The position numbers and the translations under genes are program-made. 64,000 bases of DNA from Thermoplasmatota archaeon (GTDB lineage: Archaea > Thermoplasmatota > Thermoplasmata > UBA10834), in contig JAHIRF010000002.1 of NCBI GenBank assembly GCA_018818785.1, positions 135,874 through 199,873 on the forward strand. Direction: 5' to 3'. The notes under the pieces are model-generated. The model saw only the letters and a program-made list of their open reading frames with translations, was not told the DNA's origin and searched no databases. Below, piece by piece: positions 8,484 to 33,827 of this stretch. Each line of letters starts with the position of its first letter. Position 1 is the first letter of the stretch.

Positions 8484-8530
8484 TTAGACAGTCCTCTAAT
8501 GCAACGGATCGCAGGTTTCTCGATTACGCT

Positions 8531-8541: not shown

Positions 8542-8548
8542 TGGTTTG

Positions 8549-8570: not shown

Positions 8571-8578
8571 GTCTGAGT

Positions 8579-11190: not shown

Positions 11191-11191
11191 C

Positions 11192-11422: not shown

Positions 11423-11615
11423 CATGGAATCCCTTCCGTTGAGGCAGCAAACGGAGTCTATATGTATATAATCTATCCGAAACCACGCATGGAATGGATT
11501 TATGGAGTCTTGGGGAACCACGTTACGCCATTATCATCATTCGTGACGATTCGAACAAAAAGCATTATGACGCAACACAATGATTTTACACATGAGACGC
11601 AATGGCGTCGTATAG

Positions 11616-12317: not shown

Positions 12318-12327
12318 AATCTCGATA

Positions 12328-12747: not shown

Positions 12748-13670
12748 TCCTGGTCGAAGTTGCTGCCTCCAATACCTTGTAGATGGACAGATGAGTGTTC
12801 GAAACCCGGCTTGTTGGCGGCCCTTTGGAGATAATTCACATCACCAGTCTCTATATCGAGATGAAGGAACACGACATTGTCCACTTTGAGGACTGGCAGT
12901 ATCTTGCCCGCATCCATGCCTTCGGGGTTCTCCACCATCTGGCCACACGCGGAACACTTGCCTGAATCGAGAGGTCCATGCTGTCCACAGAACGGACAGT
13001 CTACCTCGTCGAGTGGGTTGTTGTCGAACTCCATGTCTGTGAATATTCCTACGATACCGGTGTCTCCCAGCTCCAACCGGGTGCCGCATATCGGACACCT
13101 GTCAGTGTTCAATTCAACGACAGTACCACAATGTGTGCACTCGAAAACGAAGTCGGGACCACCTTTGTCGTCCTGCAGATAATGCAGGATGCCCAACTCG
13201 GCATCGAAGTGTATCAGGGGATTGCCGTCCTTCGTGACGAAATCCTCGGGTTGGAATTCTTTGAGATTCTCAGCGCGCAGGAGTTCCTCCATCTCAGCCT
13301 CGTCTATTCCTTGTATGTACAATGCGCGGCACTTCGGACACCTCTCTGCGCCATCGGGCATCTGGGTGTTGCACTCGAAGCATTGGAATGTCTTCATGAC
13401 GGGTCTTGGAGGAGCGTTAGAAGATCTAGCGACAAACTGGTCTAGAACTTGAGCGGTGATCTGGATATCATCGCGTGTAATCTTGGGCGCCTTCAGGGCA
13501 TCAGCCATATGTTTCCTGCTCATAGGCTTCGCCTTGACAACCCGTCTTAGATGCCTCTTCTCTTCCTTGACAGTGATGAAGGTACCTTTCTTTCCTAATC
13601 TCCTGGCCTTCGCTGGGGCATTCGCATCCTCGTCGACCCCTTCATCAGTCTGTTGGCGTTTCGCTTTCAT
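12723..13670 (-). CDS. Four-zinc-ribbon protein, function unknown
   Basis: 315 aa with four CxxC...CxxC pairs (CFEC..CPKC; CTHC..CPIC; CPFC..CSAC). Basic N-terminus. Confidence 0.5.
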   Translation of the reverse strand: MKAKRQQTDEGVDEDANAPAKARRLGKKGTFITVKEEKRHLRRVVKAKPMSRKHMADALKAPKITRDDIQITAQVLDQFVARSSNAPPRPVMKTFQCFECNTQMPDGAERCPKCRALYIQGIDEAEMEELLRAENLKEFQPEDFVTKDGNPLIHFDAELGILHYLQDDKGGPDFVFECTHCGTVVELNTDRCPICGTRLELGDTGIVGIFTDMEFDNNPLDEVDCPFCGQHGPLDSGKCSACGQMVENPEGMDAGKILPVLKVDNVVFLHLDIETGDVNYLQRAANKPGFEHSSVHLQGIGGSNFDQEWSGLSRI

Positions 13671-13805
13671 ATCCCAGATCCTCTCGTCAGATGTTTCGAA
13701 TCGTTTCTCTCAGCTCAACGATTGGATAGGATTACTTATACCGGTGTCGACACGGTAATCAGCGCTGATAACACCAGACCCTGCCAGTCTTCAGGCGTCG
13801 GAGGC

Positions 13806-14498
13806 TCAGAATCGCGCCTTCAGCACTATCACGCCGTCTTTGCGTGTTATATCAACCGATTGCTTCCCAGTCAGATGGTTGGTGCCTCTCATCTTGAGCA
13901 CCTCTATGTATTTGCGCCTGGCATCTCCTTCGTCGGAGAGCATCAGAAGGATGACCCCATCTACCGCGTACGATATCTCCGCGGGGTACAGTTCACCCGG
14001 ATGTACTTCACCTGTCAGAATGGTGACGGCCTGCCAGTTCTTCAATCGGGTCGCGAGATCGAACGCGAATACCCTGTAGTCATCTTTCATCATCGTACCC
14101 ACCACCGTGATTGGATCGATGACGATCCTGTTGGGCATCACCTCGGCGATCTTCTTGTCTATGATGTCGAGTATCTCTTCACCACTCCTCTTTCGGAGTT
14201 CGAGGCCGAGGTCGAAGTAGACTATCTCCTTGCCGTAGAACTCACGCTTGGCGAACTCGAACTGAGTGGCATATCTCAGCATCCACTGCGCAGGCTCGCT
14301 GAGTGTGCTTATGTAGAGGCACTGCTCGCCATTCTCAGCACCTGAGAACATGAATTTCTGGGCGAACGTGGTCTTGCCAGATCCCGCACCGCCAGCTACG
14401 AGGACAACCGATGGATAGGGGAAGCCTCCTTCGATCATATCGTCCAGGCCAGGAATGCCACTGCTCAGTCTCGGGAAGCCATTCTCGATCATATTCAA
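13806..14498 (-). CDS. KaiC-like / RecA-superfamily ATPase (single KaiC domain)
   Basis: Walker A 'VLVAGGAGSGKTTFAQKF', KaiC-like 'CLYISTLSEP', Walker B 'RIVIDPITVV'. 230 aa. Confidence 0.8.
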   Translation of the reverse strand: MNMIENGFPRLSSGIPGLDDMIEGGFPYPSVVLVAGGAGSGKTTFAQKFMFSGAENGEQCLYISTLSEPAQWMLRYATQFEFAKREFYGKEIVYFDLGLELRKRSGEEILDIIDKKIAEVMPNRIVIDPITVVGTMMKDDYRVFAFDLATRLKNWQAVTILTGEVHPGELYPAEISYAVDGVILLMLSDEGDARRKYIEVLKMRGTNHLTGKQSVDITRKDGVIVLKARF

Positions 14499-19048: not shown

Positions 19049-20386
19049 ATGCCAGTCTGTCCATTGGATTTCAGGTACGGCAGAGCCGAGATGAAGGAGA
19101 CATTTGACGAGGAGAACCGTCTTCAGCGACTGCTAGATGTGGAGGCGGCGTTGTCGCTGGCTCATGCGAAGGTCGGGAACATCAAACAGGACCATGCAGA
19201 CATCATAAAGAAGACTGCATCCACAAGGTACGTCAAACTCTCTCGGGTGCAGGAGATCGACGCCAAGATAAACCATGAGATAACGGCGTTGATACGCGCG
19301 TTGAGCGAGCAATGTGGCGAGAGCGGGAAATACGTACACGTGGGCGCTACCTCCAATGACATCCTCGATACGGCTGCCGCACTACAGATCAAGGACGCTA
19401 TCGAGATCATCCAGAAGGATCTTGCCGAGTTCAAGAAGGTGCTTGCAGAGAGAGCCAGGGAGCACCGAGACACGATCATGGTCGGAAGGACACATGGCCA
19501 ATATGCCTTGCCGATCACATTCGGACTGAAGGTCGCCAACTACGCTCTCGAGATGCACAGGCAGGAGCAGCGGCTGAGGGAATGCTCCGCACGGATACTC
19601 GTAGGCAAGATGAGTGGGGCGGTAGGTACCGGCGCAGGCTTCGGGCCCAAGGCAACGGAGATCCAGAAGGCAGTGATGGAGGAACTTGGCCTAGGAGTTG
19701 AGGAAGGACCGACCCAGATAGTAGGTCGTGACAGGTATGTCGAGCTCATGTCCGTGCTTACGAACATCGCGTGCTCCATCGAGAAGTTCGCGACGGAGGT
19801 CAGGAACCTCCAGAGAGGGGAGCTTGGAGAGGTATCCGAGCCGTTCGATGAGAACAACCAGGTCGGCAGCTCTACGATGGCGCATAAGAAGAATCCTGTC
19901 ACGGCAGAGAATGTATGCGGCCTAGCGAGGATCGTCCGCGGCTTCATGACACCTGCTTTCGAGAGCGCGATCCTATGGCACGAGAGGGACCTTACAAACT
20001 CATCAGCGGAGCGATTCTTCATCCCGCATTCGTTCATACTCTTGGATGACATGCTCGCAAAGATGACCAAGATGTACGCGGGCCTCGTCGTCAACAAGGA
20101 GCAGATGCAACGCAACCTTGCCAGAGCTGGTAGCGTCATAATGGCAGAATCAGTCATCCTCGCCCTTGTCGGGAAAGGCATGGGCAGACAGGATGCTCAC
20201 GAACTGATACGGAAATGCAGCATGGAATCCCAGCGTGCATGCGAGGATTTCAAATCATATCTGATGGCGAACAAGGACGTAACTGGCCTGCTGTCGGAGG
20301 CGGATATAGATGCCGCATTGGATCCCAGGGCGTATCTTGGTACGACGGGACAGACTGTGGACAACATTCTAAAAATTGTAGGCTGA
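19049..20386 (+). CDS. purB: Adenylosuccinate lyase
   Basis: Fumarate-lyase signature 'GSSTMAHKKNP'. The N-terminus 'MPVCPLDFRYGR' is typical of PurB. The ORF extends upstream to 18950, but 19049 is the likely start. Confidence 0.88.
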   Translation: MPVCPLDFRYGRAEMKETFDEENRLQRLLDVEAALSLAHAKVGNIKQDHADIIKKTASTRYVKLSRVQEIDAKINHEITALIRALSEQCGESGKYVHVGATSNDILDTAAALQIKDAIEIIQKDLAEFKKVLAERAREHRDTIMVGRTHGQYALPITFGLKVANYALEMHRQEQRLRECSARILVGKMSGAVGTGAGFGPKATEIQKAVMEELGLGVEEGPTQIVGRDRYVELMSVLTNIACSIEKFATEVRNLQRGELGEVSEPFDENNQVGSSTMAHKKNPVTAENVCGLARIVRGFMTPAFESAILWHERDLTNSSAERFFIPHSFILLDDMLAKMTKMYAGLVVNKEQMQRNLARAGSVIMAESVILALVGKGMGRQDAHELIRKCSMESQRACEDFKSYLMANKDVTGLLSEADIDAALDPRAYLGTTGQTVDNILKIVG

Positions 20387-20430
20387 CGAAAGTTAGAAAT
20401 ATCTCTCGTCAGCTCCCCAGCTAGCATACG

Positions 20431-20502
20431 GGCCCTTAGATCAGTGGAAGATCGCTTCCTTCGCAAGGAAGAGGTCGTGGGTTCAAATCCCACAGGGTCC
20501 AT
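20431..20502 (+). tRNA. tRNA-Ala (anticodon CGC)
   Basis: 72-nt cloverleaf. Acceptor GGGCCCT/AGGGTCC with G3:U70, anticodon loop TTCGCAA, T-arm GTGGG-TTCAAAT-CCCAC. No encoded CCA. Confidence 0.85.
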
Positions 20503-20538
20503 TCTAAGCCTGACTGGCCAATTTTCAATCAGCCGGAA

Positions 20539-21696
20539 TTGATTTCTCCCCTGTCCCAACAAACTCCTTCATCTTCTTTCTCTTCCGAAGCCTCCCGGGA
20601 CCATGAAGATTATCGAATCTTTCAGTATGTCAACGACTTCGAGGAGGTCAGGCTCAAGCTAGTAAAGGGCAAATTAGACCTGAACCTGCCTGAGGACCGG
20701 GATCTATGCATAAAACTCTATCAGAAATGGGTCACAGACGACAATTACATGGTTCTGAGAAAAATCGACCCTCGTGGACCAATCGAGTATCAGGTATGCA
20801 AGGCTCGCAAGCGTGGAAACGATGTAGACGCATACAGGATCCATCGACAGCTTCGCATCATAAAGGACTCAATCGTCGAATATGCTCAAAGCAATCAACG
20901 CCTGAGGGCTACTAGGGCCGTCCATGTGACGGGCACGATTGACCCTAGATTGGTCGATAATGATCTCGAATACGCTTGGCAGTACCTTGGATACTGGTTC
21001 AATATGTTCCTGGCAAGCCTGAGAAAGCGATGTGTCAGAAACATCACGCTCAAGGAAGAGAAGGAAAAAGCCAAGGAACTCAAGATTCGAGTATATCGGT
21101 CCTGGGAGTCCCATGGATCGGGATGGCCCCATTTCCATGCTATTCTATGTTTTGAGGGATACTCCTGGACAATCTTCCAAGATTCAAAGTCGAGGTGGCG
21201 ACTCAATGACAAGGACACATTCCAAGATGCTTGGAGCTTCGGATGGATAGATGTAGTAGCCCTCACCCCTGGCACGACTAACAAGAATGTCGAGAAGGTC
21301 GTATCGTATGTCAGCAAGTATGTGGGCAAAGGGGCCACTGAGATGGATTATCGTCATGTGGAATCCTGGCCTCGAAAGAGACTCCTGACCGAATCGCTTT
21401 TATGGTACTTTGGCAAAAGGTCATATTCGATCAGTCGTGGGCTATTGGAGGGACATGACCACCCTAACGACTTGAAAAAACGTATAAGCACAATTCAAAC
21501 GAACATAGAAGGAGAATGCGTCCCAGAGCTTGAAATTGTGTGGGAATTCATTGGAATGGTGCGCGGAAAAGACACCGAATTGGATGGCTACACCTGGGTC
21601 AAGACGTATACGGATCCACCTGATTGGCTAGACCTATGCTGGAAACCTTGTCGTAGCTACGTGGGAACATGTTGGATGAATACTTGGGGGAGTTGA
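20539..21696 (+). CDS. rep: Rolling-circle replication initiator (HUH superfamily Rep)
   Basis: Motif 1-like 'AVHVTGTI', HUH motif 'WPHFHAILCF', Tyr motif 'VSYVSKYVGK'. First gene after the tRNA att site. Confidence 0.6.
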   Translation: MISPLSQQTPSSSFSSEASRDHEDYRIFQYVNDFEEVRLKLVKGKLDLNLPEDRDLCIKLYQKWVTDDNYMVLRKIDPRGPIEYQVCKARKRGNDVDAYRIHRQLRIIKDSIVEYAQSNQRLRATRAVHVTGTIDPRLVDNDLEYAWQYLGYWFNMFLASLRKRCVRNITLKEEKEKAKELKIRVYRSWESHGSGWPHFHAILCFEGYSWTIFQDSKSRWRLNDKDTFQDAWSFGWIDVVALTPGTTNKNVEKVVSYVSKYVGKGATEMDYRHVESWPRKRLLTESLLWYFGKRSYSISRGLLEGHDHPNDLKKRISTIQTNIEGECVPELEIVWEFIGMVRGKDTELDGYTWVKTYTDPPDWLDLCWKPCRSYVGTCWMNTWGS

Positions 21697-21697
21697 G

Positions 21698-21907
21698 ATG
21701 TTCGTTTGCGACGGATGTCAACATGAATTCGATTTTCTAATGATTATCTGTGGCCTAGCGTTGTGCAATGAATGTCTTAAACCGTACGATGACGCATTAT
21801 CGGAATGTCAATCGCATAAAGAATTGGACATTGTGGGTCGACGGATACGTTCGGATATTCTGTCTTTTCGAAAAGGGGAGAGAGTCAATAAGTGTTTTAG
21901 AGAGTAG
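21698..21907 (+). CDS. Small zinc-finger protein (element cargo)
   Basis: 69 aa, 'CDGCQHEF...CGLALCNEC' Cys4-type pattern. Confidence 0.35.
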   Translation: MFVCDGCQHEFDFLMIICGLALCNECLKPYDDALSECQSHKELDIVGRRIRSDILSFRKGERVNKCFRE

Positions 21908-21926
21908 TGGTCGGAGGTCGTCAGTC

Positions 21927-22787
21927 TCATGATTCGTTATGCTTTTCGCAAGTGATAGTTCTTGTATTGATTTCCTTGAGCAGTTCTTTGACTCCAGGCA
22001 ATTTCGTCAGAGAGCGTTGCCATCGGTCGAATGATTCAGTATAGAATTCAATGACAAAACCTTCGGAGAAGACAAGCAAAGTACGGTCTGGACGATTGAG
22101 GAATGCGAGTTCTAGATTCTTAGGCTTGATCTCGTCTTCGAATTTCCACTCGTACTTTTGATTCTTGCTTACCCTTTTGTCCTTGCGGTTGATGAATTCG
22201 TCGATTTCGAAGGTGAGATTATCTGGATCTTCTTGATTCAGTAGCGGCATTATTGCGTCTCTCAATGGTCCGCTTTTCAGAACCATGGCTTTTCTATGCT
22301 TCGGAGGGTGGATGAATCGAGATAAGGATTTCTTGAAGTAGAGATTCATTCTTTCCATGTCTTTCTTGTTATTGACTGATGTGATCTTTGGCGGAGGAGA
22401 ACCCGGCCTCGAAAGGAGAATCATGAAAGAGTTCAGAAACTCTTCAATCGTGATGAGTCTGTAATATTTATGAGCTTTTTCTCGGTCTGGTTCTCTTTCG
22501 TCAGTGAGGTGGGGTTCGAATCCAAGCGACTTCTGAACCAGACCCAGATGGACAGATGGGTCAATACTTGCGTGTGCCTTCACAATTGTTTCGTATTCGT
22601 TGATTTGTTTTGATACAATTTTGAGAATTGCGATTCCTTCAGCTGAAATCGTCATCTTCTTCTTGATGTGCTTCTTGCTCATCCTTTCGGAATAATATTG
22701 CTTTGATATAAAGCGTGAGAGGTATGGATCGAATGCTGTTGCTTGTGAGGATAGAATAATGCCTTTAGGCTGCCGAAACCGAATCAA
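21927..22787 (-). CDS. Hypothetical protein (element cargo), AT-rich codon usage
   Basis: 286-aa ORF, K/E-rich, no motif recognized. Confidence 0.35.
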   Translation of the reverse strand: MIRFRQPKGIILSSQATAFDPYLSRFISKQYYSERMSKKHIKKKMTISAEGIAILKIVSKQINEYETIVKAHASIDPSVHLGLVQKSLGFEPHLTDEREPDREKAHKYYRLITIEEFLNSFMILLSRPGSPPPKITSVNNKKDMERMNLYFKKSLSRFIHPPKHRKAMVLKSGPLRDAIMPLLNQEDPDNLTFEIDEFINRKDKRVSKNQKYEWKFEDEIKPKNLELAFLNRPDRTLLVFSEGFVIEFYTESFDRWQRSLTKLPGVKELLKEINTRTITCEKHNES

Positions 22788-22977
22788 GAGGGGGTATGAG
22801 CGCAGTTGCGTTAGAGGCGTTCTAGAGGGGGCTTGGAAGAGGTCAGATGAAGAGGGAGGGAACAGAAGAAGACTGGTAATGAGAGTTGGCTCTTAGCCTG
22901 GTGGCAGGACTGAATGGGGATTCCCCGGAAGCCTTTATGTAGCGAGTTGACGGTCAGAGAAGACAAGGGGTGGAATT

Positions 22978-23268
22978 GTGAATAGCAGTGAACCCGATTC
23001 AGATCAGGGAGAACCAACCTGGTTCAAGACATGGTGGGAGAGGGAGGAGAAACGTCGCTCGAGACGCGAGCTGACTGAAGGCGGTTTTGGCATATTCACC
23101 ATCGGTCTCGGAGGCATCGCAGTCGGTCTGGGATTGGCCGCACTTGAGGACGCCAATACTGTGGCGGTTGCCCAAGTCCTCTTGGTCAGCATGTTCGCCA
23201 TGATTGTGGGGATGGTGATAGCTATGGCCAGTCTGTTCGGTTACAGGCGGAAAAGGGGTCCCAAATGA
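22978..23268 (+). CDS. Small membrane protein (element cargo)
   Basis: 96 aa, 2 TM after a charged N-terminus. Confidence 0.35.
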   Translation: MNSSEPDSDQGEPTWFKTWWEREEKRRSRRELTEGGFGIFTIGLGGIAVGLGLAALEDANTVAVAQVLLVSMFAMIVGMVIAMASLFGYRRKRGPK

Positions 23269-23435
23269 CGAATTTTCTGGAGGGACTTGTTGGCTTATCT
23301 GTTGGTTTGGTGCTTTCCGCGATTATAGCAAATGCTCTATGGACGATACAGCCAATTGGTACAGTGCTGATTGGTGTCATAGATGTCGTGGCCGTCGTCG
23401 CATACGTCAAGGGATTGGCGGGTGGCAGAGGATAG
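23265..23435 (+). CDS. 56-aa two-TM peptide. Its ATG overlaps the stop of the 22978..23268 gene (ATGA).
   Basis: Direct translation gives 'MTNFLEGLVGLSVGLVLSAIIANALWTIQPIGTVLIGVIDVVAVVAYVKGLAGGRG'. Below the ORF-track length threshold. Confidence 0.3.
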   Translation: MTNFLEGLVGLSVGLVLSAIIANALWTIQPIGTVLIGVIDVVAVVAYVKGLAGGRG

Positions 23436-23493
23436 AGTCCGGTTCTAATCTGACTGGGAGAAGACCATAGAGTGGAAATGTGCCACTCGAGCA

Positions 23494-24045
23494 TTAGTAG
23501 AGTTTGCCTCGCTCATATCTGAACGAAGCGTGCTCATGCTTCTTGTCTCGTAACACTGATCTGAACAGGCTAGGGTACTCGATTTCCTCAAGAGGTAGGC
23601 AATAGACTTCGTCTGGCATTGACGGCTCTCCCCCTAGGCCCAGAACCATAAACACAGTCTCTGGACATACTCCCTTCTGAAAGCTGCGATACGCTTCCAG
23701 GCGGTCCTGTTCACATATCTTGAACTTGTCATCATAGAGTCTGGCTCTCCATTTCGCTTCGACCCAGAACTTGTCCCTGCTCCTTCGGTCCTTTATGTAG
23801 AGGTCCGGCTTTCTGCTGCCTTCGGGATCATCCCTCTGCTTGATTTCGAAATCGCGATTCGGAAACATGTTTTCCACGAACGCTTCGAAATCCTTGCCTT
23901 TCGCATACTGGACAGGATCATAGTTTCGCTTCAATTGAACCAATCCCGGACATTGATGACAAGGAGACCAGATAGTTGTTTCGGAAGGTCCCGCCTGGGT
24001 CTCCAGGCTTTTTTGCTCAGAAAAGCCCAGAGAGAGGAGACACAA
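23494..24045 (-). CDS. PD-(D/E)xK nuclease-fold protein (restriction-endonuclease-like / NERD-like)
   Basis: 'RKPDLYIKD...KFWVEAKWR' gives D...(D)-x(n)-E-x-K spacing. 183 aa. Confidence 0.45.
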   Translation of the reverse strand: MCLLSLGFSEQKSLETQAGPSETTIWSPCHQCPGLVQLKRNYDPVQYAKGKDFEAFVENMFPNRDFEIKQRDDPEGSRKPDLYIKDRRSRDKFWVEAKWRARLYDDKFKICEQDRLEAYRSFQKGVCPETVFMVLGLGGEPSMPDEVYCLPLEEIEYPSLFRSVLRDKKHEHASFRYERGKLY

Positions 24046-24133
24046 TCAGGATTACGTTGTCTGCGTACCTCAATCCAAAAAGCATAATTCTCATTGATTA
24101 CCAGCCAAGCACCCGTATTCTGAGGGGAGATGC

Positions 24134-25159
24134 TTGGCTTATGGTGGCAAAGGAACTAATCGGAGTATGACAATTAGGTGCCTATATGTTGGTTTGCCAA
24201 CAGGGAGGTTGACAGATACGGAGAGCGAATCGGAGACTAGAAGTCACAACAAGAAGGTTGATAGCATCAACAAATCAGGCTATGGTTTCCAGAGAAAGAT
24301 TGCACTTGAGATCTCTAGCACCGAGAAATGGGATGTTGAGATTGAGAAGCCCCTCGTAAGATTCGAAGAAAGGTCGGTGGAAGAGGTCAAGGTTGACATC
24401 TTAGCTCGCTCCAGACGGAAGTTCAGCGATATGCCTAGAGCAGTTTCTGTGATTGAATGCAAGAGACATGATCCCAAGTATTCAGAATGGCTCTTCTTCT
24501 CTCGAGGCAGCAATCTTGGAGAGATTGAAGGTCGAGAGAAATTCCCATCAGTTTGGTGTCACCTCACCGGTGGCAGTTATTCCTTCGATAACAAACATCA
24601 CAAGACGGGTAGAATGGGGATGTACGAGGGTTATTTCCCAAGTCTGGCTGAATGGGCTGATATCAAATACAGTGATTCTTTTGGGGTTCCGACGAGGCGC
24701 GATGGTACGATTGGTGCCGCAGACTCAGGAGTGATTCAGCATGCTGCTAACCAGGTGGCTCGGGGAGTGCTCGGCGCTGTTCATAGCCTCCACGAATACC
24801 GAAACTCGCGGAGGAAAGAGCGATTTCTTCCTCTTACGGGGAATCATCTAGTCCTTCCAGTCCTTGTCACAACTGCTCCAATTTACGTGTGCCATGTTGA
24901 TGATGCAGCCACGGACTTACTGCAGGGCAGTATTCCTCCCGACGGTCTAGAGACTGAATCGAAGAAGTGTCTGCTATTCAGATATTCGCTCCCTATAGGT
25001 CTTTGGTTCCCACCTGATACGCTCGCAGGAGACGGATTGCCGGACCTGACGTCACTCTCCGTATGGGTAGTCAGTTCATCATTCTGCAAAGAGTTCTTTT
25101 CGCTCGTTGACAAAGACGCTGCTCATTGGCAAGAAATGGCTCCGATTCAGGGACAGTGA
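24134..25159 (+). CDS. Putative PD-(D/E)xK-like nuclease / hypothetical protein (element cargo)
   Basis: 'VKVDILARSRRKFSDMPRAVSVIECKRHD' is a candidate D...E-x-K motif. 341 aa. Transcribed divergently from the 23494..24045 gene. Confidence 0.35.
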   Translation: MAYGGKGTNRSMTIRCLYVGLPTGRLTDTESESETRSHNKKVDSINKSGYGFQRKIALEISSTEKWDVEIEKPLVRFEERSVEEVKVDILARSRRKFSDMPRAVSVIECKRHDPKYSEWLFFSRGSNLGEIEGREKFPSVWCHLTGGSYSFDNKHHKTGRMGMYEGYFPSLAEWADIKYSDSFGVPTRRDGTIGAADSGVIQHAANQVARGVLGAVHSLHEYRNSRRKERFLPLTGNHLVLPVLVTTAPIYVCHVDDAATDLLQGSIPPDGLETESKKCLLFRYSLPIGLWFPPDTLAGDGLPDLTSLSVWVVSSSFCKEFFSLVDKDAAHWQEMAPIQGQ

Positions 25160-25171
25160 TACAGGAAGAAT

Positions 25172-26500
25172 TCATTCTTCTGAAATGATGTCTCTGAAGT
25201 CCTCGAATGTCTCTGGATAGAAGACCTCGATGTCACACGGGATTTCAGAGAATTCCTTTAATGACAGAATATTGTCGACGACGGATGCTCCAACGCACTG
25301 GGGGATATTCGTTACAAGGTATGCGCTGCTAACGTGAATATCGGCCTTGTCATAGGTCCTCCAATGATTGGAAAGCTGGTTGAGATCTTCACGGATTTGC
25401 GATTCCAGGGTTCGTCCAGGTGAGTCGAGATGGTGAACCTTAGATTCGACGATTCCAATTTCGTTCTCATCCTCCATTTGAAATACCGCGTCCTTCTCGG
25501 TGTCATCGGCCAGTCCTTCCACATATACACCAGGTGCCCAGCTGCGGCCGCTTTCTCGGAGGCTCCAGTGTACCGTGGTGCCCAGCAAACCGTCGCGGGC
25601 ATCCAGCAATTTGGCAAGTGGCGATTTTGGGTAGTAGAATGTACCCACAGCCATTTCGGACTTGCAGACTGGGCAGGTCGAGACCGGAGGGTCCTGGCTA
25701 GCTACCGCAAAGTACGATTGAGGATGTTTCCTGCATTGAGTGCACCAAACTAGCGATGTCGCCGGGGACAAGAGACAGAAGCGGTCGGCAAGCTGTTTTA
25801 GTGTGCGGTGATATTCTTCATAGCTCTGTCTGGAGGACACAAGGAGATTTTCTAGGTGCTTCCGGCCGAATTGCAGCGCACCATATTTCCATATTGAAAA
25901 AATGCTAGCTAGGGCAGGAACCACCAAATCTCCGGCTCTGCTCGTGATTGTGTTTACGACTTTTCTTAGCCCATCTTCACTGTACATCTGAATGATTCTG
26001 TTTGTTACCTCTCTGGTGACGATCTCCGTCCTGATCTCTTCCTCTCGTTCAGTTTCAAGTGATGGAAGCTTCGCGGTCGTTTCCTGAAACTGCTCTTCAA
26101 AACCCGCGAGAATATCAGGTAGGATTGGAAGAAACCTATTCAAGGCGTCGTATACATGGACTCGGAGCTCGGCGTCAGACTTGCTTGCTTCGTAGGCCAA
26201 TGGATCGTGGTCACGGAAGGGCATGCTTTCATCATAAAAGATGGGGAGAACAACTCCCTTGAATGGCATGTAGTCATGCCTGTGGCGCCAGAGAAACTTG
26301 CGAATGTCCTCCTCCGTCGCGACCGCGTCAAAAAGCTGTGTAAGTTCTGGGACCGATTGAATGGTCTTCAACGAATTCAGCTGGTCTGAATCACACTTCA
26401 GCTTCCTTTTGGAGCCGTCCCTGAGGGTGACCGTTTCAAGAATGTTCATTAGGTCATGGTCATCGATTTTCACAGCCCTCGGATGGGGTCTACATGCCAT
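25172..26500 (-). CDS. Large hypothetical protein with an internal zinc ribbon (element cargo)
   Basis: 442 aa, 'CTQCRKHPQ...CPVCKSE' zinc ribbon, no other recognizable domain. Confidence 0.35.
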   Translation of the reverse strand: MACRPHPRAVKIDDHDLMNILETVTLRDGSKRKLKCDSDQLNSLKTIQSVPELTQLFDAVATEEDIRKFLWRHRHDYMPFKGVVLPIFYDESMPFRDHDPLAYEASKSDAELRVHVYDALNRFLPILPDILAGFEEQFQETTAKLPSLETEREEEIRTEIVTREVTNRIIQMYSEDGLRKVVNTITSRAGDLVVPALASIFSIWKYGALQFGRKHLENLLVSSRQSYEEYHRTLKQLADRFCLLSPATSLVWCTQCRKHPQSYFAVASQDPPVSTCPVCKSEMAVGTFYYPKSPLAKLLDARDGLLGTTVHWSLRESGRSWAPGVYVEGLADDTEKDAVFQMEDENEIGIVESKVHHLDSPGRTLESQIREDLNQLSNHWRTYDKADIHVSSAYLVTNIPQCVGASVVDNILSLKEFSEIPCDIEVFYPETFEDFRDIISEE

Positions 26501-26682
26501 AAACCTTCAGGTCCGGTATTAGGTCTACTACAGACTATAGACTGTAGAAAGTAGTCAGTTATCTTACTGGCCTTGGGGCGAACCGCAAGATACAAATGCA
26601 CGAAGTCTGTTAAGATTTATGGATCGTGTAACCTGGAATTTTGGCTTTGGTCTGATTCCTTTCGCGGCCTAGTGGCCCTCTG

Positions 26683-27987
26683 TTGTATTTAATTTTGATA
26701 TTGTTGATCCAGCCAGCACGACTAGGTTGCGAAAGATTGATCAACAAAGGAGACGAAGAATCGTCGTGGGCGGGCAGTTGGCGCTTGAGAGAAAACGTTA
26801 ACTCCCTAGATAGTGATGTAACGAGCGGTCCTGAGGATGGGACAACTCAGGACCGCAAGGGATACAATGAACCCGGTCGTGAACCCAGATCGGGGCAGGG
26901 GAGACGGAAGAGCTCGACGCATAGAAGAAGGAAGCCAGGAAGGGAGCGTGGTCCGAGGTCAAATGGCCCTTATCCGTTCCTGACTGAGCTTAAGGTCTAT
27001 CTGAAGGACGTGGAGCATGCACATGCGGAATCCACACTGACAGACATGGCAAGGAAGCTGCGGCATATCCATGATGTTCTCAAGGAGCTGAAATCGAAGG
27101 GACTTGTACAGACTACAAGTCCCCGAAAGATGGGAGAACAAGAGATCTTTGCATTTGTTGCATGGATGAACGCCAAGGATGGCCTGCGTTCAAGGCCTTT
27201 GGGCGAAGCCACTCAGAAGAAGACGCTTCACCAGTTGAAGAGCTTCCTGGCGCATCTCGACAATGGCGTAATCGACAGAATGCTGAAGAAGAAGCAGCTG
27301 AGGATGCCGCGAGAACGGAATGTTCCTCGTGAATCGTTTGAGGCGGATGAGCTTGCCCAGATTATGACGAGTCTCAAAGAGGCGGCTGCCAAGGGGTCAA
27401 TGAATGCCTTCGGCGTGTTTGGCCATGCTCTGTTCTGCGGATATGCGGGCACGAGACTCAAGGAGGTCAGGCTAGCTCAGAGAGGCGACTACTTGGCCAA
27501 GTTCTATGAATTGACCGTGCTTCATCCAAAGGGCGAGAAGTCCTGGGGAGATCCACGAATAGCACAAATCTGCCCTCCTGGGAGGCCGTTCGCCGACGAT
27601 TTCATGGCTATGCGCGACCGAGAGCTAAGGAAGTCCGACATCCTTGACAGCAAGGCGATCCCATTGGTGCCTAGAGTCATAGGAGGCAGAGTCGAACGCT
27701 GGCCAGATTCGGTCCTTCATAACGTGAAGTGCGAGGTCGAGCGTGACCGTATGCTGCAGTTCGACTTTCGCAAGCTGAGAAGAACTTACGGCCAGAACGC
27801 TTTAGATGCCGGTACGCCAATGGACTTCGTGAGTGGAGCTCTAGGTCACGCACACGTGGCGACGACTCAAAGGTCCTACGTCCGTCTGAAAAGCAGTAGA
27901 GTCTTTGCGGAGATAGACCGTGCCTATGCGAATGCGTCTGTAAATTCAATCCCCGTTGATTGCGATAAGGCCAGGTGTTCGAAATGA
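26683..27987 (+). CDS. int: Tyrosine recombinase / phage-type integrase. The true start is probably internal, near 27046; the first ~120 codons of the ORF are low-complexity.
   Basis: Catalytic region 'FRKLRRTYGQNALDAGTPMDFVSGALGHAHVATTQRSYVRL' shows the R...HxxR...Y pattern. Confidence 0.72.
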   Translation: MYLILILLIQPARLGCERLINKGDEESSWAGSWRLRENVNSLDSDVTSGPEDGTTQDRKGYNEPGREPRSGQGRRKSSTHRRRKPGRERGPRSNGPYPFLTELKVYLKDVEHAHAESTLTDMARKLRHIHDVLKELKSKGLVQTTSPRKMGEQEIFAFVAWMNAKDGLRSRPLGEATQKKTLHQLKSFLAHLDNGVIDRMLKKKQLRMPRERNVPRESFEADELAQIMTSLKEAAAKGSMNAFGVFGHALFCGYAGTRLKEVRLAQRGDYLAKFYELTVLHPKGEKSWGDPRIAQICPPGRPFADDFMAMRDRELRKSDILDSKAIPLVPRVIGGRVERWPDSVLHNVKCEVERDRMLQFDFRKLRRTYGQNALDAGTPMDFVSGALGHAHVATTQRSYVRLKSSRVFAEIDRAYANASVNSIPVDCDKARCSK

Positions 27988-28367
27988 GGAGCCACAGGGT
28001 CCACCATCCATGAGAAAAGGACATAAGGGCGGACTACCAGGGAAAGATTCTTGTGCTGAAGAGAACGATTGCAGCAAGGGAGTCGACTTGAATTCTGATT
28101 CAGAGAGACCCGTCAAGGCCAATGCTCCTGTCCGAATTCCCCGGATACTGCTCATGATTGGCAGTATTGGGGTGATCCGAGGGGTTCTAGCATGCATCAG
28201 GCGTGTAGGAAGAAGAAAAGGAGTTTAGCTCCGGGCCAATTCCCCGCTGATTGAATCCGAGTCCTGACATACTGGCTCCTCAGGGATTCAAATCCCCTTC
28301 AGTTTGAATCCTGATGTAAGGGGCCGTAGACACGGAATAGGAATCTTCAAGCCATGAACAGCGATTT

Positions 28368-28868
28368 ATGGTTGAGGAAATGGCGCTTAGATTGAGCAGA
28401 TCGATTAGACAATTCGGCCTGATAGCTGCAGTGGTGGGCGTAGTGGCCATTCTTGCATTTGCAGCCTATGTTCTTGTCTTCTCGACCATTACGGTGTCCG
28501 GCGTGGTGGACCACAAGACGATTGTTGGAATAAGGGACGACTGTCAGTACACCCTTGTGGTCATCGTTCCCTGGGGCATACAGGTCCAGGATTCAGCCCT
28601 TCAGAGTCTCTTCTCTGATAAGGATGTCAATTTGACGATTGACGAGTCATTGGAGTGGGATATCAGGTCTTGCGGATATGCAGAGATACGCTACCTAGCT
28701 AGCGTGAGATTGTCAACGGGAGACTCGGTCAATGATATTGAACCAGGAGGAACTCTCGCCTACTTCGTTAAGAGAGATGACTTCAACAAACTAGGATTCA
28801 TTGATAACCACACAATCAGTGTAGAGAAGTTCGAATTCGCCACCATCAGAGATGTGGACAAGGGTTGA
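28368..28868 (+). CDS. N-terminally membrane-anchored protein (element cargo)
   Basis: 166 aa, with one TM ('FGLIAAVVGVVAILAFAAYVLVF') followed by a soluble domain. Confidence 0.35.
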   Translation: MVEEMALRLSRSIRQFGLIAAVVGVVAILAFAAYVLVFSTITVSGVVDHKTIVGIRDDCQYTLVVIVPWGIQVQDSALQSLFSDKDVNLTIDESLEWDIRSCGYAEIRYLASVRLSTGDSVNDIEPGGTLAYFVKRDDFNKLGFIDNHTISVEKFEFATIRDVDKG

Positions 28869-28925
28869 ACGCCTTCTGATGTGCAGTTACGATGAATCCT
28901 GTGTAGAATGATGGAAGGGGTTTGG

Positions 28926-29055
28926 TGAGGGGCAACGATCCCCTCCTAAAATGACCAAAGCGTTTGCTATCTCTCAACGCGTCTCCTCGGCGAAGGTGCC
29001 CTAACAAGGGCATTTTGGACTATGAGCCAGTCATCTTCGTGGTCCATCATCCCAA
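28926..29055 (+). repeat. Copy 1 of a ~130-nt imperfect direct repeat. It contains two hairpins and ends in a degenerate copy of the tRNA 3' end.
   Basis: 'gaggggcaacgatcccctc' and 'gccctaacaagggc' palindromes. About 85% identical to 29692..29830. Confidence 0.6.
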
Positions 29056-29141
29056 TGAGTCGATGAGAAGAAGCCATAAGAGCGGAATGCCTGAGTAAAC
29101 TAGATAACAATCCATGTCCATCAACATATAGAGGACTGGCG

Positions 29142-29534
29142 ATGAGGTGTCCGCATTGTGCATTTGAGAGTCCACCAGATAACAATTACTGCGGCCGCTG
29201 TGGAGGAAAACTGGGAGCGATGAGTCCTAACTCAAACGTGCCTGAATGGTTGCGTGACGAAGGGAGAGGTGTTGGAGGAAGCCTATATCCTGAGGCGTCC
29301 TTCATCGACCCTGCTTCGTGGAGCATTGCCCAGAAGAAGAGATGGACAGCATTGGGTGGCATTGCGATGGCATTCATGGTTACATTCATTCTGGCGATAG
29401 CGTTCACGACCACTGACGCATTCACACGAGACCTCTTCTTAATCATGGCCCTTGTCCTTGCGTTCGTATTTGGGTCGATGATTGCTGCCCGCTGCTACAG
29501 AATGTCTATCCGCAAGAAGGAACTCGAGCAATGA
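29142..29534 (+). CDS. Zinc-ribbon + 2-TM small protein
   Basis: 'CPHCAFESPPDNNYCGRCGG' N-terminal ribbon, C-terminal hydrophobic helices, 130 aa. Confidence 0.45.
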   Translation: MRCPHCAFESPPDNNYCGRCGGKLGAMSPNSNVPEWLRDEGRGVGGSLYPEASFIDPASWSIAQKKRWTALGGIAMAFMVTFILAIAFTTTDAFTRDLFLIMALVLAFVFGSMIAARCYRMSIRKKELEQ

Positions 29535-29691
29535 ACCGTCACTGGTGCAAAATGTATGCATGAACCGATTCGGAGAACTCGGATGCGAACATCAATTTTA
29601 TGAGATTCATTGATTGCTATGATGATTCATTGCGATTAGATCGTGGGTGTACCTGTTGAAGGGTCATGAGCTGAGGATGTTGAAGAGGTTT

Positions 29692-29830
29692 AGTGAAGGG
29701 TAATTAACCCCTCTAAAAAGAACAACGGGTTTGCTACCTCTCAATCCGCTTCCTCGGCGAAGATGCCCTAACAAGGGCATTTCGGGGTGTGAGCCAGTCA
29801 TCTTGATGGTCCCTAATCCCACAGGGTCCA
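29692..29830 (+). repeat. Copy 2 of the ~130-nt repeat. It ends with the exact 16-nt tRNA-Ala 3' end (attR, 29815..29830).
   Basis: 'AATCCCACAGGGTCCA' is identical to 20487..20502. Confidence 0.7.
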
Positions 29831-29880
29831 CCAATTCTGAGAAAAGGCCAAAGGGGGGCAAATAGAGGCTTCCCCAGCAA

Positions 29881-30123
29881 ATGATATATGTTCACGATTC
29901 AGTGGCAATCATCATGCAATGCATGCAATGCGGTGCCTCCAATCCGGAAAATGCCAAATCCTGTCAACTTTGCATGAACTCTTTGGAGATAGAAGATTAC
30001 AAAGATCCAGCATTCTACGCAGAGTCACCTTCTTGGAACTCATATGGCAACATCATACTCATACTGGGGCTGCTGTTCACGGCATTCTTCTTGGTGTCGA
30101 TGCTCCTTGTATTCTTCTTTTGA
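29881..30123 (+). CDS. Zinc-ribbon + TM small protein
   Basis: 'CMQCGASNPENAKSCQLC' followed by one TM. 80 aa. Confidence 0.4.
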   Translation: MIYVHDSVAIIMQCMQCGASNPENAKSCQLCMNSLEIEDYKDPAFYAESPSWNSYGNIILILGLLFTAFFLVSMLLVFFF

Positions 30124-30223
30124 CGGAAGAAGAGAATGAGTTCGAGCTGAGTTTTCGCATGTCTTCCAAAGATGCTGGGGTAAGAAAATGTGATAGAGGC
30201 GGAAGAGCTGACTGTGGAAATGG

Positions 30224-31270
30224 CTACTCAGAATTACTCTTCAGGCGCCATATCTTACGATCTCCTGGCGCGCCATACTGAAAGTAGTGAAAGAGAATCA
30301 CTGAGGTAAGCATGATCAGCTGACCTATCACGCACAGATACCATCCAAGCTGAAGCTTTGCAGCGAATACAGCGCCAACAGTCATAGTTCTGTACTCCCC
30401 GAACACCAGTCCCCAAAACAGAGTCAATGCAAGAGTGACGATCAGTAGGTCCTGAGCGAACTGCAAGATAACCAGACCACTCATCTTGCGGACGAACAAG
30501 CACAGAATGACCAGCGCAGTGGACAGGACTGCTATAACAAGCACAAGGTATACCAGTGGTGAGACTTCGGACCCGTTGTTGGAATAAGGACTCTGACCGT
30601 ACAAGCTTGATGCGGACCCGGAGTTCCAGGCCAGGAAGAATCCCGCCACTGTAATGGCACATCCAAAGACGATGATGGGAATGGATACCCAGAAGAGAGA
30701 TGCTGTGTGGGATTTCGCGGGTGACAGTCTAATCGAATTGCGATTTCCGTCATTTGACTTACAGGCTTCATGATACATGCCCAGTGTTAGCAGGCACGCG
30801 GCCGAACCAGAAAACAACGCAATGAACCACCCAATCACCATTTCGTCAAGTGCAGACCAGAGAACAGATAGATCTGCCGACCCAATTGGCCAAGGCAATT
30901 CCCAGTGGACATAGAGCAATGGTCCCGCCAGGGCCAAGCTGTTCAACATCGACGAGGCACGAAGGGCTACGGTATGCTCCCTCTTCTTGGCGATGGCGAA
31001 CATAGAGAGGAGAAGGGAGATGATTGCGGCCGTAAAGCATATAAAGAGTGCGATCGCCGTGTAGAAAGTAAGACCACTTGAAGGACCGTCCATAAGACTC
31101 GGATACAGCAATTCAAGCGGTCCAGCATAAGAGATACTCGCATAGATCCGCTCCCAGGGAAGGAAATATGCGACTATTACGAGAACCTGAGCGAGCGCTA
31201 GACAATAGCGAAGCCAGAATGCCTTTGCCTTAACCGTACCCTTCAACGATGCTCGCTTCCACCCAGACAT
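30224..31270 (-). CDS. Polytopic membrane protein (about 9 TM), function unknown
   Basis: 348 aa, hydrophobic throughout. Confidence 0.45.
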   Translation of the reverse strand: MSGWKRASLKGTVKAKAFWLRYCLALAQVLVIVAYFLPWERIYASISYAGPLELLYPSLMDGPSSGLTFYTAIALFICFTAAIISLLLSMFAIAKKREHTVALRASSMLNSLALAGPLLYVHWELPWPIGSADLSVLWSALDEMVIGWFIALFSGSAACLLTLGMYHEACKSNDGNRNSIRLSPAKSHTASLFWVSIPIIVFGCAITVAGFFLAWNSGSASSLYGQSPYSNNGSEVSPLVYLVLVIAVLSTALVILCLFVRKMSGLVILQFAQDLLIVTLALTLFWGLVFGEYRTMTVGAVFAAKLQLGWYLCVIGQLIMLTSVILFHYFQYGAPGDRKIWRLKSNSE

Positions 31271-31371
31271 CCATTTAAATCATGCTTTTGCGCTATATTA
31301 ATATCACTCGGATAGACAAGGATTGTAGCTGGAATGCAGATTCGCATATACCGTGGGAAAGGCCATAGGAC

Positions 31372-31836
31372 CTATTTCTTCTGAGGCGCGCCACAAAACG
31401 GGCACTTGCTTGACGTGACCTCTATCAAGGCGTTGCAGTATGGGCATGGATACTTGACAATCTCCCTGACCACTTCCTTCACGATCGTTGGCTGTGAAGA
31501 GTGAGTAGTCTCTGCACTCTGGCTTGCCATTCCGCTCTGAATAGCAGTTATCCACGGTTCAGGCGTATCGACTTGGAATTCATGGCGGGGAATCCCTGAC
31601 ATCTCTGTAGTGTCAACTACTACCACAAGAATCGGCTTCTGAACCATCCCAAGGATCTTGTTCGCCCTCTGGACATTCATTGACTTAATTGCCTTGAGCG
31701 GAATGGATTGGGTAACATAGTCCTTCCGATTTACCAGACCGCTTCGAGTGACGAACTTGAGCTGCCCGTTCTCCAGCTCAAGAACGCCTGGATTGCCCCT
31801 ATACCAAGCTGGCGATGAATAGGACAGCACACTCAC
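31372..31836 (-). CDS. PH/GRAM-like domain protein with a C-terminal zinc ribbon
   Basis: 'VLELENGQLKFVTRSG' bacterial-PH-like N-terminus, 'CPYCNALIEVTSSKCPFCGA' ribbon. Confidence 0.4.
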   Translation of the reverse strand: MSVLSYSSPAWYRGNPGVLELENGQLKFVTRSGLVNRKDYVTQSIPLKAIKSMNVQRANKILGMVQKPILVVVVDTTEMSGIPRHEFQVDTPEPWITAIQSGMASQSAETTHSSQPTIVKEVVREIVKYPCPYCNALIEVTSSKCPFCGAPQKK

Positions 31837-32156
31837 CTATCTGTTCATCGTTCTGCCGCACTGCGGACAAACCGCCTTGGGAGCTGACAGCAATGCCTTG
31901 TGCTTTGGAACGCATCCGAAACAGTAGACCTTCCCAGCGTTCTGTCATCCCTGAGTCTTGCAGATCAATCCCGGTGGCTGCATTAATCCTCCAACCGATT
32001 TCCCACAGTTCACACATATGCCTCGCACCATAACCACTCCGACCTGGCATTTTCCTTTCGGCTCATAAGCCTTCCTGTATTCTCTCTTTAGAAAAGGCCA
32101 TAGAGGCGGATAGGTATTTAGCCAACTGAGGGCTTTCAGCTATCGGGGGATCCAGA

Positions 32157-32720
32157 ATGGCGAAAGCGGCACTTATGATGGGGATTGCAGTCGCTGTTGT
32201 TGCTCTGATTATCGTTTCATTGTCGTGGGCATACTACAGTCCAGAGTATTCGTGGGATGCCTCTATACGGGACAGCGACGGCGATGGTTATCCCGATAAC
32301 ATCGATCCATATCCTGATGACCCTGCGAAGTGGACATCCCCTTCGGTGACTCCTACAACATCAATTGCGCATGTCACCGTATTCAACGGCATCAAGTTCA
32401 TAATTGGCGCAGGCGCTGAGGTGCCTTGGTCAGATGTCACAATCATACTTTCGGATGGGAGCCAACATGAGGCATGGGACAACATCTCGTCATCAGATCT
32501 GGATGACACAATCTATGATTCCCAAAGCTACGGAGATGAATATGTCGGCGAGTTATGCGTCTCTCTCGTCGTCACAGACCTAGACGGTAATGGTCGAATG
32601 GACGAAATGGACTACTTCACCCTGATAGCAGACGAGTTCTCATATGGGCAGACCTACAGCATTTTCTTGGTCTATGATCCCACTGCAGAGGAAATCACTC
32701 GATGCATCTTCACTGGGTAG
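32157..32720 (+). CDS. Membrane-anchored extracellular protein with a thrombospondin-type-3-like Asp-rich calcium-binding repeat
   Basis: N-terminal TM, 'DSDGDGYPDNIDPYPDD'. Confidence 0.4.
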   Translation: MAKAALMMGIAVAVVALIIVSLSWAYYSPEYSWDASIRDSDGDGYPDNIDPYPDDPAKWTSPSVTPTTSIAHVTVFNGIKFIIGAGAEVPWSDVTIILSDGSQHEAWDNISSSDLDDTIYDSQSYGDEYVGELCVSLVVTDLDGNGRMDEMDYFTLIADEFSYGQTYSIFLVYDPTAEEITRCIFTG

Positions 32721-32783
32721 AGGGTCCTTGTACCGAGAAAACGCCATAGAGGCGGAAGGACATGCAGCGAACGGTCGATAGAA

Positions 32784-33158
32784 ATGGCAAAGAAGATGAT
32801 TGTATGCAAGAAATGTGGAGTCAAGAATCCAGACTATGCCTTCCGTTGTGGCTCTTGTGCCTCCACGCTCCGCAGTCCTACTGCCAAGGATTCGCGTGCA
32901 ACTCGAGGAGAACAGACATCAGAGGGCCTAGTCGATTCCGTCGACGGACATATGACCAATGACCGAAAACCGATCTGGCAAACAAGATATCGTAACCGCG
33001 TTGCGTTGAACTTGTTCTTGATCGCCCTTTTCGCATTCATTCTTATCATGGACATATTGTCTGGTGCAAGCGCTCTCAACATTGCTGTTGTGCTGGTGTT
33101 TCTGGCTCTTTCCACCACGCGGTTCCTCCTTACTTGGCGGAGGATCCAACAAGCGTAG
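32784..33158 (+). CDS. Zinc-ribbon + 2-TM small protein
   Basis: 'CKKCGVKNPDYAFRCGSC' ribbon, C-terminal TM helices, 124 aa. Confidence 0.45.
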   Translation: MAKKMIVCKKCGVKNPDYAFRCGSCASTLRSPTAKDSRATRGEQTSEGLVDSVDGHMTNDRKPIWQTRYRNRVALNLFLIALFAFILIMDILSGASALNIAVVLVFLALSTTRFLLTWRRIQQA

Positions 33159-33278: not shown

Positions 33279-33827
33279 CTATGCAAGCAGGCCAGCGGAC
33301 TTCAGCTCTTCTGTGATCTTGTCGACGGCAGTCTCGGCATCCTCAGGCTTTCGGGCGCCAGTGCAAACAAGTTTCCCGCTGCCGAACAGAAGCATAACTA
33401 CCTTCGGCACGTCGAGACGGTACACGAGTCCGGGGAATTGCTCAGGTTCGTACTCGACCTTCTCAAGACCAAGTGTGATAGCCGTCGCATTGAGGTTGAT
33501 CTTCGCCCCGAGGTTGCTTGTGGCAACGATGTTCTGCACCACGATATCTGGCTCTTTCGTGATCACAACACCAGCAGCTTCTATCTCCTTGACCACCTTG
33601 CCAACAGCAGTCTTGACCTGCTCGAGGCTCTTGGCTCCCGTGCAAACGACCTTTCCGCTCCTGAAAAGCAGCGTCGCCGTCTTAGGTTCTTTGAGCCTGT
33701 ATATCAGACCTGGGAACTGCTCAGGTTCGTATTCCGCACCGTCAAGCGTAATCGCAATCGCCTGAAGATCTAGCTCCACCCCTAGAGATGCTGAGGCGAC
33801 AACGTTCTCTATCTTAATCACTGCCAT
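33279..33827 (-). CDS. tbp: TATA-box binding protein
   Basis: Two direct repeats containing 'NVVASASLGVELDL...YEPEQFPGLIYRL' and 'NIVATSNLGAKINL...YEPEQFPGLVYRL'. Confidence 0.92.
   Translation of the reverse strand: MAVIKIENVVASASLGVELDLQAIAITLDGAEYEPEQFPGLIYRLKEPKTATLLFRSGKVVCTGAKSLEQVKTAVGKVVKEIEAAGVVITKEPDIVVQNIVATSNLGAKINLNATAITLGLEKVEYEPEQFPGLVYRLDVPKVVMLLFGSGKLVCTGARKPEDAETAVDKITEELKSAGLLA

Follow-up and report, generated by a model that had tools for sequence, protein, structure and literature searches.

Orphan nuclease-fold candidates in the cargo of a 7.5-kb integrated element from a Thermoplasmatota archaeon

When examining a 64,000-nucleotide stretch of a Thermoplasmatota archaeon genome (GenBank assembly GCA_018818785.1, contig JAHIRF010000002.1, positions 135,874 to 199,873 of the forward strand; this whole stretch is called the window here), we were concerned with three adjacent genes, A, B, and C, in the variable part of a 7.5-kb integrated element. 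The original prediction, made from the DNA letters and the translated open reading frames (ORFs), had taken them as one module with paired nucleases, a candidate defense or restriction-like system. Do the three genes form one system, or do they only share a mobile element? Our analysis argues for the second answer. We give a little better than an even chance to the reading that the variable part of this archaeal cryptic integrated element (CIE) holds three independent single-gene units, each with a PD-(D/E)xK-type core. By analogy with the neighborhoods of related genes, the cargo is probably of the defense type.

The three ORFs were found where they had been placed, at 23494..24045 (minus strand, 183 amino acids), 24134..25159 (plus strand, 341 amino acids), and 25172..26500 (minus strand, 442 amino acids), and the strings PDLYIKD...VEAKWR, VDILAR...VIECKR, and CTQC...CPVC are present in the translations. 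The extent of C stands; that of A was too long by comparison with its homologs (146 amino acids, not 183), and B is annotated with 316 amino acids, not 341. A and B diverge from a 274-nt intergenic region, and B and C converge, separated by 12 nt. The location on a mobile element was also borne out by tRNA-Ala attachment (att) repeats, a rolling-circle replication initiator (Rep), and a tyrosine integrase.

Three genes with candidate PD-(D/E)xK cores

Gene A (23494..23934, minus strand) encodes a minimal Mrr-like PD-(D/E)xK candidate of 146 amino acids with a TTG start, placed by homolog lengths and conserved columns. Nine of its 10 homologs are 144 to 147 amino acids long, the other having 217 with an unrelated extension, and the upstream extension of A is not conserved, so we take 146 amino acids as the correct form. 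The 183-amino-acid form (23494..24045), with an N-terminal CxxC, was rejected; among DNA relatives, only the closest one keeps its 37 upstream codons. E17, P43-D44, and E59-A-K61 are invariant in all 11 sequences of the A family (54 to 79% identity), and because of this invariance the motif exceeds chance. Weak matches to Pfam Mrr_cat (PF04471) were found in 7 of the 11 members over profile positions 5 to 57, the catalytic, N-terminal half of the profile, with a best E value of 0.0024. No PDB match was found for the family by phmmer or by profile (profile search at E ≤ 10, Hjc included), and A has no match in PADLOC or NCBIfam and no meaningful match in PHROGs. A is a core-only protein, with no recognizable DNA-recognition or extra domain. 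Its assignment as a candidate PD-(D/E)xK nuclease is supported by the sequence comparison.

About 25 to 45 nt upstream of the A start, at 23955-23975 on the minus strand, lies the DNA motif (T/A)TCCGAAACAACTAT. It is kept in the window and in two related loci (L004 and L005; such handles denote individual related loci) although the flanks diverge, and it may be a promoter or an operator.

Gene B (24209..25159, plus strand) has an annotated TTG start at 24209, giving 316 amino acids; the ORF itself runs over 24134..25159, and an ATG at 24167 is also a possible start. Residue numbers below are those of the 316-amino-acid form. A word-index search had returned B alone, and its status as an orphan was abandoned when an exhaustive search (phmmer/HMMER, E ≤ 1e-3) uncovered a large family of at least 244 cluster representatives (50% identity clusters) from bacteria and archaea, nearly all of 280 to 330 amino acids. 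In a set of 150 representatives sharing about 20 to 45% identity, D63, E83, K85, W94, and T221 each reach 98.7%. Further conserved positions in the same set are P217 and A223 (98%), G240 (97.3%), G24 and Q182 (96.7%), and C84 (96%); conservation was also read from a 72-sequence alignment. Since D63, E83, and K85 are near-invariant across the family, this motif too exceeds chance.

The AlphaFold2 (AF2) model of B has a mean predicted local distance difference test score (pLDDT) of 82.7 and a predicted template modeling score (pTM) of 0.85. In the model, a helix at 25-36 and a strand at 41-52 are followed by a strand at 57-68 with D63 and a strand at 78-85 with E83 and K85; after these core strands come a helix at 174-203, which carries Q182, and a strand at 213-221 (PVLVTTA). 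An insertion at 100-140 is poorly predicted, and the C terminus is a beta-rich extension. The modeled order of strands and helices is that expected for a restriction-endonuclease core. Foldseek gave weak local matches (45 to 90 columns), mostly to PD-(D/E)xK proteins: the R2 restriction-like endonuclease (RLE), SduA, MspJI, Exo5, RecU, EcoRV, Cas4, and T7 endonuclease I-like, RecE-like, and UL24 proteins.

Sequence profiles point the same way. In a profile comparison, the D...IECK stretch of the B family lines up in register with a genuine Mrr_cat protein of L005 (E value of 0.001, probability of 21%), and scattered weak matches to PD-(D/E)xK-type families (NERD, HSDR_N_2, YhcG_C, Mrr_cat, and CARF_PDDEXK) were found among B-family members. 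B itself has no Mrr_cat match in the Pfam scan, no Pfam, NCBIfam, PADLOC, or PHROG model covers the family, and no whole-fold PDB match was obtained. Searches of PDB sequences by phmmer and profile gave nothing useful for B, and tblastn against phage and plasmid collections gave no match. Sequence and model together support B as a candidate PD-(D/E)xK nuclease. The D...E-x-K cores proposed at the outset for A and B have therefore held up as family-invariant features, with weak sequence and fold matches that are largely to PD-(D/E)xK proteins.

Gene C (25172..26500, minus strand) encodes 442 amino acids with a helical N terminus, a zinc ribbon, and a C-terminal candidate PD-(D/E)xK domain. The ribbon has the pattern CxxC-19-CxxC and consists of C253, C256, C276, and C279 (nt 25664-25744, minus strand). 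C had been described as a protein with no enzymatic motif, which was incomplete: past the ribbon, invariant D337 and E352-x-K354 lie in a predicted beta-beta-alpha-beta segment of the candidate nuclease domain (about nt 25175-25603, minus strand). The model places strands at 337-341 and 348-354, a helix at 365-385, and a strand at 390-397, and then another helix, strand, and helix. Members of the C family have 433 to 442 amino acids. In the four-sequence alignment, the invariant segments are RAGDL (188-192), the four ribbon cysteines, MAVGTFYY, WAPGVY, DTEKDA (with D337), and GIVE-x-K-x-H (with E352 and K354). Because there are four sequences only, this invariance is weaker evidence.

The N-terminal 240 residues of C are helical, with no detectable relatives. 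Pfam gave nothing relevant to C and no Mrr_cat, PDB sequence searches gave nothing useful, and no C-family relatives were confirmed in metagenome and viral contigs. Weak Foldseek matches were to Can2, R2 RLE, XisH, SfsA, EndoMS, LmuA, and the nuclease end of Avs3. We tentatively regard C as a third candidate nuclease-fold protein, from conserved residues and the local model, and as the least secure of the three assignments.

As the original prediction had stated, the three proteins have no methyltransferase, helicase, or ATPase domain (Pfam, NCBIfam, and PADLOC). Nor do they match a canonical restriction-modification (R-M) or known defense system: no PADLOC-DB v2.0.0 model matched A, B, or C, and members of their families gave stray matches only (E > 0.002). 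None of the three is covered by a family in Pfam, NCBIfam, PHROGs, PADLOC, or PDB.

Co-occurrence and neighborhoods of the three families

Family hidden Markov models (HMMs) of A, B, and C were run against all ORFs of 29 related loci and the window. Each model hit once in the window. Among the related loci, the A model hit 14 (5 distinct contexts), the B model 12 (5 contexts), and the C model 3 (2 contexts). The three families were never in the same locus among the 29, in agreement with tblastn, although many of the related contigs are short and a partner beyond a few kilobases could escape the test. Further A-family relatives were sought in genome contigs, and none were confirmed. The idea of one module with paired nucleases thus fails at these loci. 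A new multigene system of A, B, and C is not supported, as conserved co-occurrence was not found.

The A homologs lie next to a type I CRISPR-Cas operon and an integrase (L004), an Mrr_cat gene, a HEPN_AbiV-like gene, and an integrase (L005 and L006), a type I R-M system with SduA_C and Mrr_cat genes (L009), a BglII-like gene with HicA and a DNA methylase (L014), or a spore-photoproduct-lyase-like gene (L010). Lineage-specific small partners were seen beside some of them, namely, a 148-amino-acid gene that always precedes A in L014 to L016 and a 67-amino-acid gene overlapping the A start in L010 to L013. Neither partner is present in the window.

L005 and L006 contain a related integrated element of about 6.8 kb (about 7013-13935) with the integrase, the Mrr_cat protein, the A homolog, the HEPN_AbiV-like protein, and unknowns. 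It is flanked by two copies of the window's tRNA-Ala 3' sequence; one is exact over 25 nt, and the other extends over 88 nt at 83% identity and takes in the left end of the window element. No intact tRNA was found there by ARAGORN. Because of these flanks, we consider that A rides a related integrative element with different companions.

For the B family, the contexts include a methylase with DUF4268, HNH, and SLFN_AlbA_2 genes (L019), a PLD/SNF2 helicase with an MmeI-type methylase and OLD/AAA_15 (L022 to L025), a type IV pilus cluster (L026), and housekeeping genes (L028). In L002 and L003, as in the window, the C homolog and an integrase gene diverge, and the position of B is taken by a double-zinc-ribbon protein in these two loci. 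The C homolog of L001 is near an Eco57I/TaqI_C-type methylase.

Meaning of the cargo and alternative explanations

The three families are new, uncurated families of a known kind, not a new multicomponent mechanism. The closest comparison for A and, in register, for B is the Mrr (type IV) catalytic domain PF04471, with which they share the order of a helix E, (P)D, and (I/V)E-x-K. Like Mrr, A and B stand alone without a methylase and lie in defense islands. Unlike it, A lacks an N-terminal winged-helix DNA-recognition domain, and B is enlarged by a long insertion and by a beta-rich C-terminal extension for which no structural match was found. Type IV restriction would fit with the weak similarity to Mrr and with the lack of a methylase. 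Type II R-M systems differ in that no methyltransferase gene lies beside the endonuclease candidates in the scanned ORFs of the element; scans of the six large ORFs at 20539-27987 (with Pfam, NCBIfam, and PADLOC) and of the small ORFs (with Pfam only) gave no methyltransferase domain.

Shedu (SduA) and NERD proteins are similar in being single nuclease-fold genes with a patchy distribution in defense islands. B has a weak Foldseek match to SduA (8ps5, E value of 0.32), A relatives adjoin an SduA_C protein, and weak NERD matches were found in 3 of 72 B-family members. However, no PADLOC Shedu model matches A, B, or C, and the domain order is not the same, the nuclease core of B being N-terminal. 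C resembles R2 retrotransposon RLE and Can2 in having a Cys4/CCHC-type metal-binding motif immediately before a PD-(D/E)xK-like domain, and both are among its top weak fold matches (9dou_A with an E value of 0.1 and 8q3y_A with an E value of 0.14, neither significant), but C has no reverse transcriptase or CARF domain.

The element as a whole can be compared with the CIEs described from Thaumarchaeota, in which an integrase is found with R-M components and with replication genes of several kinds, rolling-circle Rep among them (PMC6563490). Similarly, the window element is small (<20 kb), is integrated at a tRNA gene, and has a tyrosine integrase, a replication gene, and restriction-type cargo; a rolling-circle Rep is present in one described CIE (PMC6563490). 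It differs in that the host phylum is Thermoplasmatota and the cargo consists of orphan nuclease-fold genes only, with no methylases.

In the reading that we favor, A, B, and C would have been acquired separately, without need of each other, and each protein would cut incoming or competing DNA by itself, as an Mg2+-dependent endonuclease comparable to type IV or "orphan" restriction enzymes or to abortive-infection nucleases. As in other members of the superfamily, the acidic D and E would serve as metal ligands, with the lysine activating water. Target recognition by C might come from its zinc ribbon and helical N terminus. Without an accompanying methylase, these enzymes would either depend on DNA modification (type IV-like) or be regulated in another way. 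Together, the three genes could serve as a miniature defense island shielding both host and element.

Several observations weigh against this reading, besides the short contigs in the co-occurrence test. No match to a PD-(D/E)xK family reaches the curated threshold for any of the three proteins. A itself scores 13.5 bits against Mrr_cat, where the gathering cutoff is 21 bits, and all Mrr_cat matches in its family fall under the gathering score. By Foldseek at E ≤ 1e-3, B has no match in PDB or BFVD and C has none in PDB. Pairwise hhalign comparisons among the families gave nothing significant; for this reason, A, B, and C are not recent paralogs. Residue 159 of B (about nt 24683-24685) is G, where E is found in 81% of the 150 representatives; the family consensus around this position is R-E-x-K on a strand, and the closest relatives of B carry E, Q, and E. 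C has only three known relatives, with 82%, 66%, and 37% identity, and its AF2 model is poor, with an overall pLDDT of 48.3 and values of 70 to 86 for residues of about 340-440. Two of the four informative B contexts (L026 and L028) are not defense islands. The original prediction had named occurrence outside mobile contexts as a finding that would speak against it, and this is seen in part, for the B-family members in the pilus cluster and among the housekeeping genes.

Four other explanations were considered. That A, B, and C are one new multicomponent defense or restriction-like system with cooperating nucleases is very improbable, and we rank it last. The genes are tightly packed on one element, with the short distances given above, and none of them matches a known system. 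However, besides the absence of the families from each other's loci, the C relatives of 66% identity have a zinc-ribbon membrane-type protein at the place of B, the neighbors of the closest A relatives (79% and 60% identity) are different, and the gene orientations exclude a single operon. A role of some or all of the genes in element maintenance, for example, of C in integration, excision, or rolling-circle replication and of A as a structure-specific (junction-resolving) nuclease, is unlikely, though it is the best of the four. C and about 370 nt upstream of it are kept as a block beside nonhomologous integrases in two elements, and a weak PHROG match of A (E value of 0.14) is labeled junction resolvase. 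The size of A and its E...D...ExK spacing match those of minimal archaeal resolvase-like PD-(D/E)xK proteins. Against a maintenance role, the 37% C relative (L001) has no integrase within its 6.6-kb contig and is near a methylase, A occurs in chromosomal R-M and CRISPR neighborhoods without Rep or integrase (L009 and L014), the A profile finds no solved structure at E ≤ 10, not even Hjc, and small rolling-circle elements need no resolvase.

A lower probability is given to addiction or toxin modules, in which toxic nucleases curbed by an unrecognized antitoxin or by regulation would stabilize the element by postsegregational killing. In favor are the orphan state of the nuclease-fold genes, which lack methylases and sit on a small mobile element, the HicA toxin gene beside one A relative, and the small genes next to A in the lineages mentioned above. 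But no small partner gene is conserved across the contexts of A, B, and C, and no candidate antitoxin ORF adjoins any of them in the window. The chance that the proteins are relics, inactive or in decay and acting only as scaffolds or DNA-binding proteins, or that the ORFs are partly miscalled, is smaller again, above only that of the single system. B lacks the common E159, TTG starts are predicted for both A and B, and inactive restriction-endonuclease-fold domains are known, such as Pfam NA-iREase1, seen here in neighboring proteins. On the other side, all three ORFs are intact and full length compared with their homologs, the core D/E/K residues are kept, and purifying selection is visible at these positions.

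We return to the reading of three independent units. If it is true, a very small archaeal integrative element, of 7.5 kb, can carry stacked orphan nucleases. The B family, which recurs beside DISARM-like, OLD, R-M, and HNH genes, would be a possible addition to catalogs of defense systems. A bolder version is possible but doubtful: the B family would be a new single-gene nuclease against mobile elements, C a second new zinc-ribbon nuclease traveling with a structured RNA or origin-like block, and the element would carry at least two undescribed immune effectors. The main value of the analysis lies in the candidate families for defense screens, with B as the most useful lead, and in the correction of the three-gene-system reading.

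The integrated element and its surroundings

A tRNA-Ala(CGC) gene lies at 20430..20501 on the plus strand (ARAGORN; 69 bits with the Rfam tRNA model, the sole Rfam match in a scan of 20000-30500). Its 3' end, AATCCCACAGGGTCCA, is the 16-nt left attachment repeat (20486-20501), found by direct-repeat search and in the sequence. The right attachment repeat, CCACAGGGTCCACCA, is at 27992..28006 (plus strand), 4 nt past the integrase stop, and belongs to repeat families D2 and D7. The element thus spans about 20486 to 28006, or 7.5 kb, and its GC content goes down to 0.45 to 0.51. It is an integrated mobile element, having all three of tRNA-derived flanking repeats, an integrase, and its own Rep.

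The rep gene (20539..21696, plus strand), the replication gene of the element, begins immediately after the tRNA-Ala gene. Its product matches Pfam REP_ORF2-G2P (E value of 1.4e-06; 29 bits, exceeding the cutoff of 27.8) and a PHROG for replication initiation (0.002), and the translation contains the HUH motif PHFHAIL and the Y motif YVSKYVGK. It is followed by a 286-amino-acid gene of unknown function (21927..22787, minus strand), which has no match in Pfam, PADLOC, NCBIfam, or PHROGs and no relative in the fetched loci. Two small membrane-protein ORFs, recognized from their translations, are convergent with gene A: one of 96 amino acids (22978-23268, plus strand) and one of 56 amino acids (23266-23436, plus strand), the ATG of which overlaps the stop of the first. 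Pfam gave only weak matches to transmembrane DUF families for these ORFs (22978..23436). The 56-amino-acid ORF is more plausible than a 90-amino-acid minus-strand ORF that it overlaps (23222-23494), directly downstream of gene A; the 90-amino-acid ORF is probably spurious.

The tyrosine recombinase/integrase ORF (26683..27987, plus strand) matches a PHROG integrase (3.6e-11) and Pfam Phage_integrase (2.8e-5); its matches to XerC/XerA models (1e-7 to 6e-5) are far under the cutoffs of those models. Translation of the integrase probably begins farther downstream, past about 26913.

Between gene C and the catalytic region of the integrase lies a conserved, apparently noncoding structured block of about 370 nt (26534..26902, plus strand). 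It is 73.5% identical over 370 nt to L002 (1205-1572), gene C and its L002 counterpart have 71% nucleotide identity, and the integrases of the window and L002 are otherwise unrelated. Mismatches in the block are even over the codon positions of the integrase frame (16/59, 12/60, and 15/60), so coding probably does not extend over about the first 75 codons of this ORF. As read from the alignment, the pairing of two hairpins survives substitutions for which G-U compatibility exists on the plus strand only. Compared with shuffled sequence, the fold has a z score of -3.9 on the plus strand and -3.2 on the minus strand. No Rfam match was found for the block, and pattern scans of metagenome and genome collections gave no further copies. 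Possible roles for the block are those of single-strand origin of the rolling-circle element, small RNA, and integrase leader.

Beyond the right repeat, an exact copy of the 16-nt tRNA-Ala 3' end is found at 29815-29830, which is a better copy than that at 27992-28006. Extra att-like copies (27992-28029 and 29708-29856) and a 121-nt repeat (81% identity; 28941-29061) were seen in the region that separates the integrase from this second tRNA 3'-end copy. They point to a tandem or decayed insert at 28030-29830, with genes for small membrane and zinc-ribbon proteins.

Small ORFs at 29142-29534, 29881-30123, and 32784-33158 encode an N-terminal CxxC...CxxC zinc ribbon and apparently hydrophobic stretches; in another ORF of this run (29142-33158), at 31372-31836, the ribbon is C-terminal instead. 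Pfam DZR double-zinc-ribbon proteins also occur near the C relative of L002 and the A relative of L010. Proteins identical to ones encoded here are recorded under the tags KKE24_00870 and KKE24_00875 (metagenome-assembled genome, Candidatus Thermoplasmatota archaeon). An ORF at 33279-33827 (minus strand) encodes a TATA-box-binding-protein-like protein with two internal repeats, which marks the window as archaeal.

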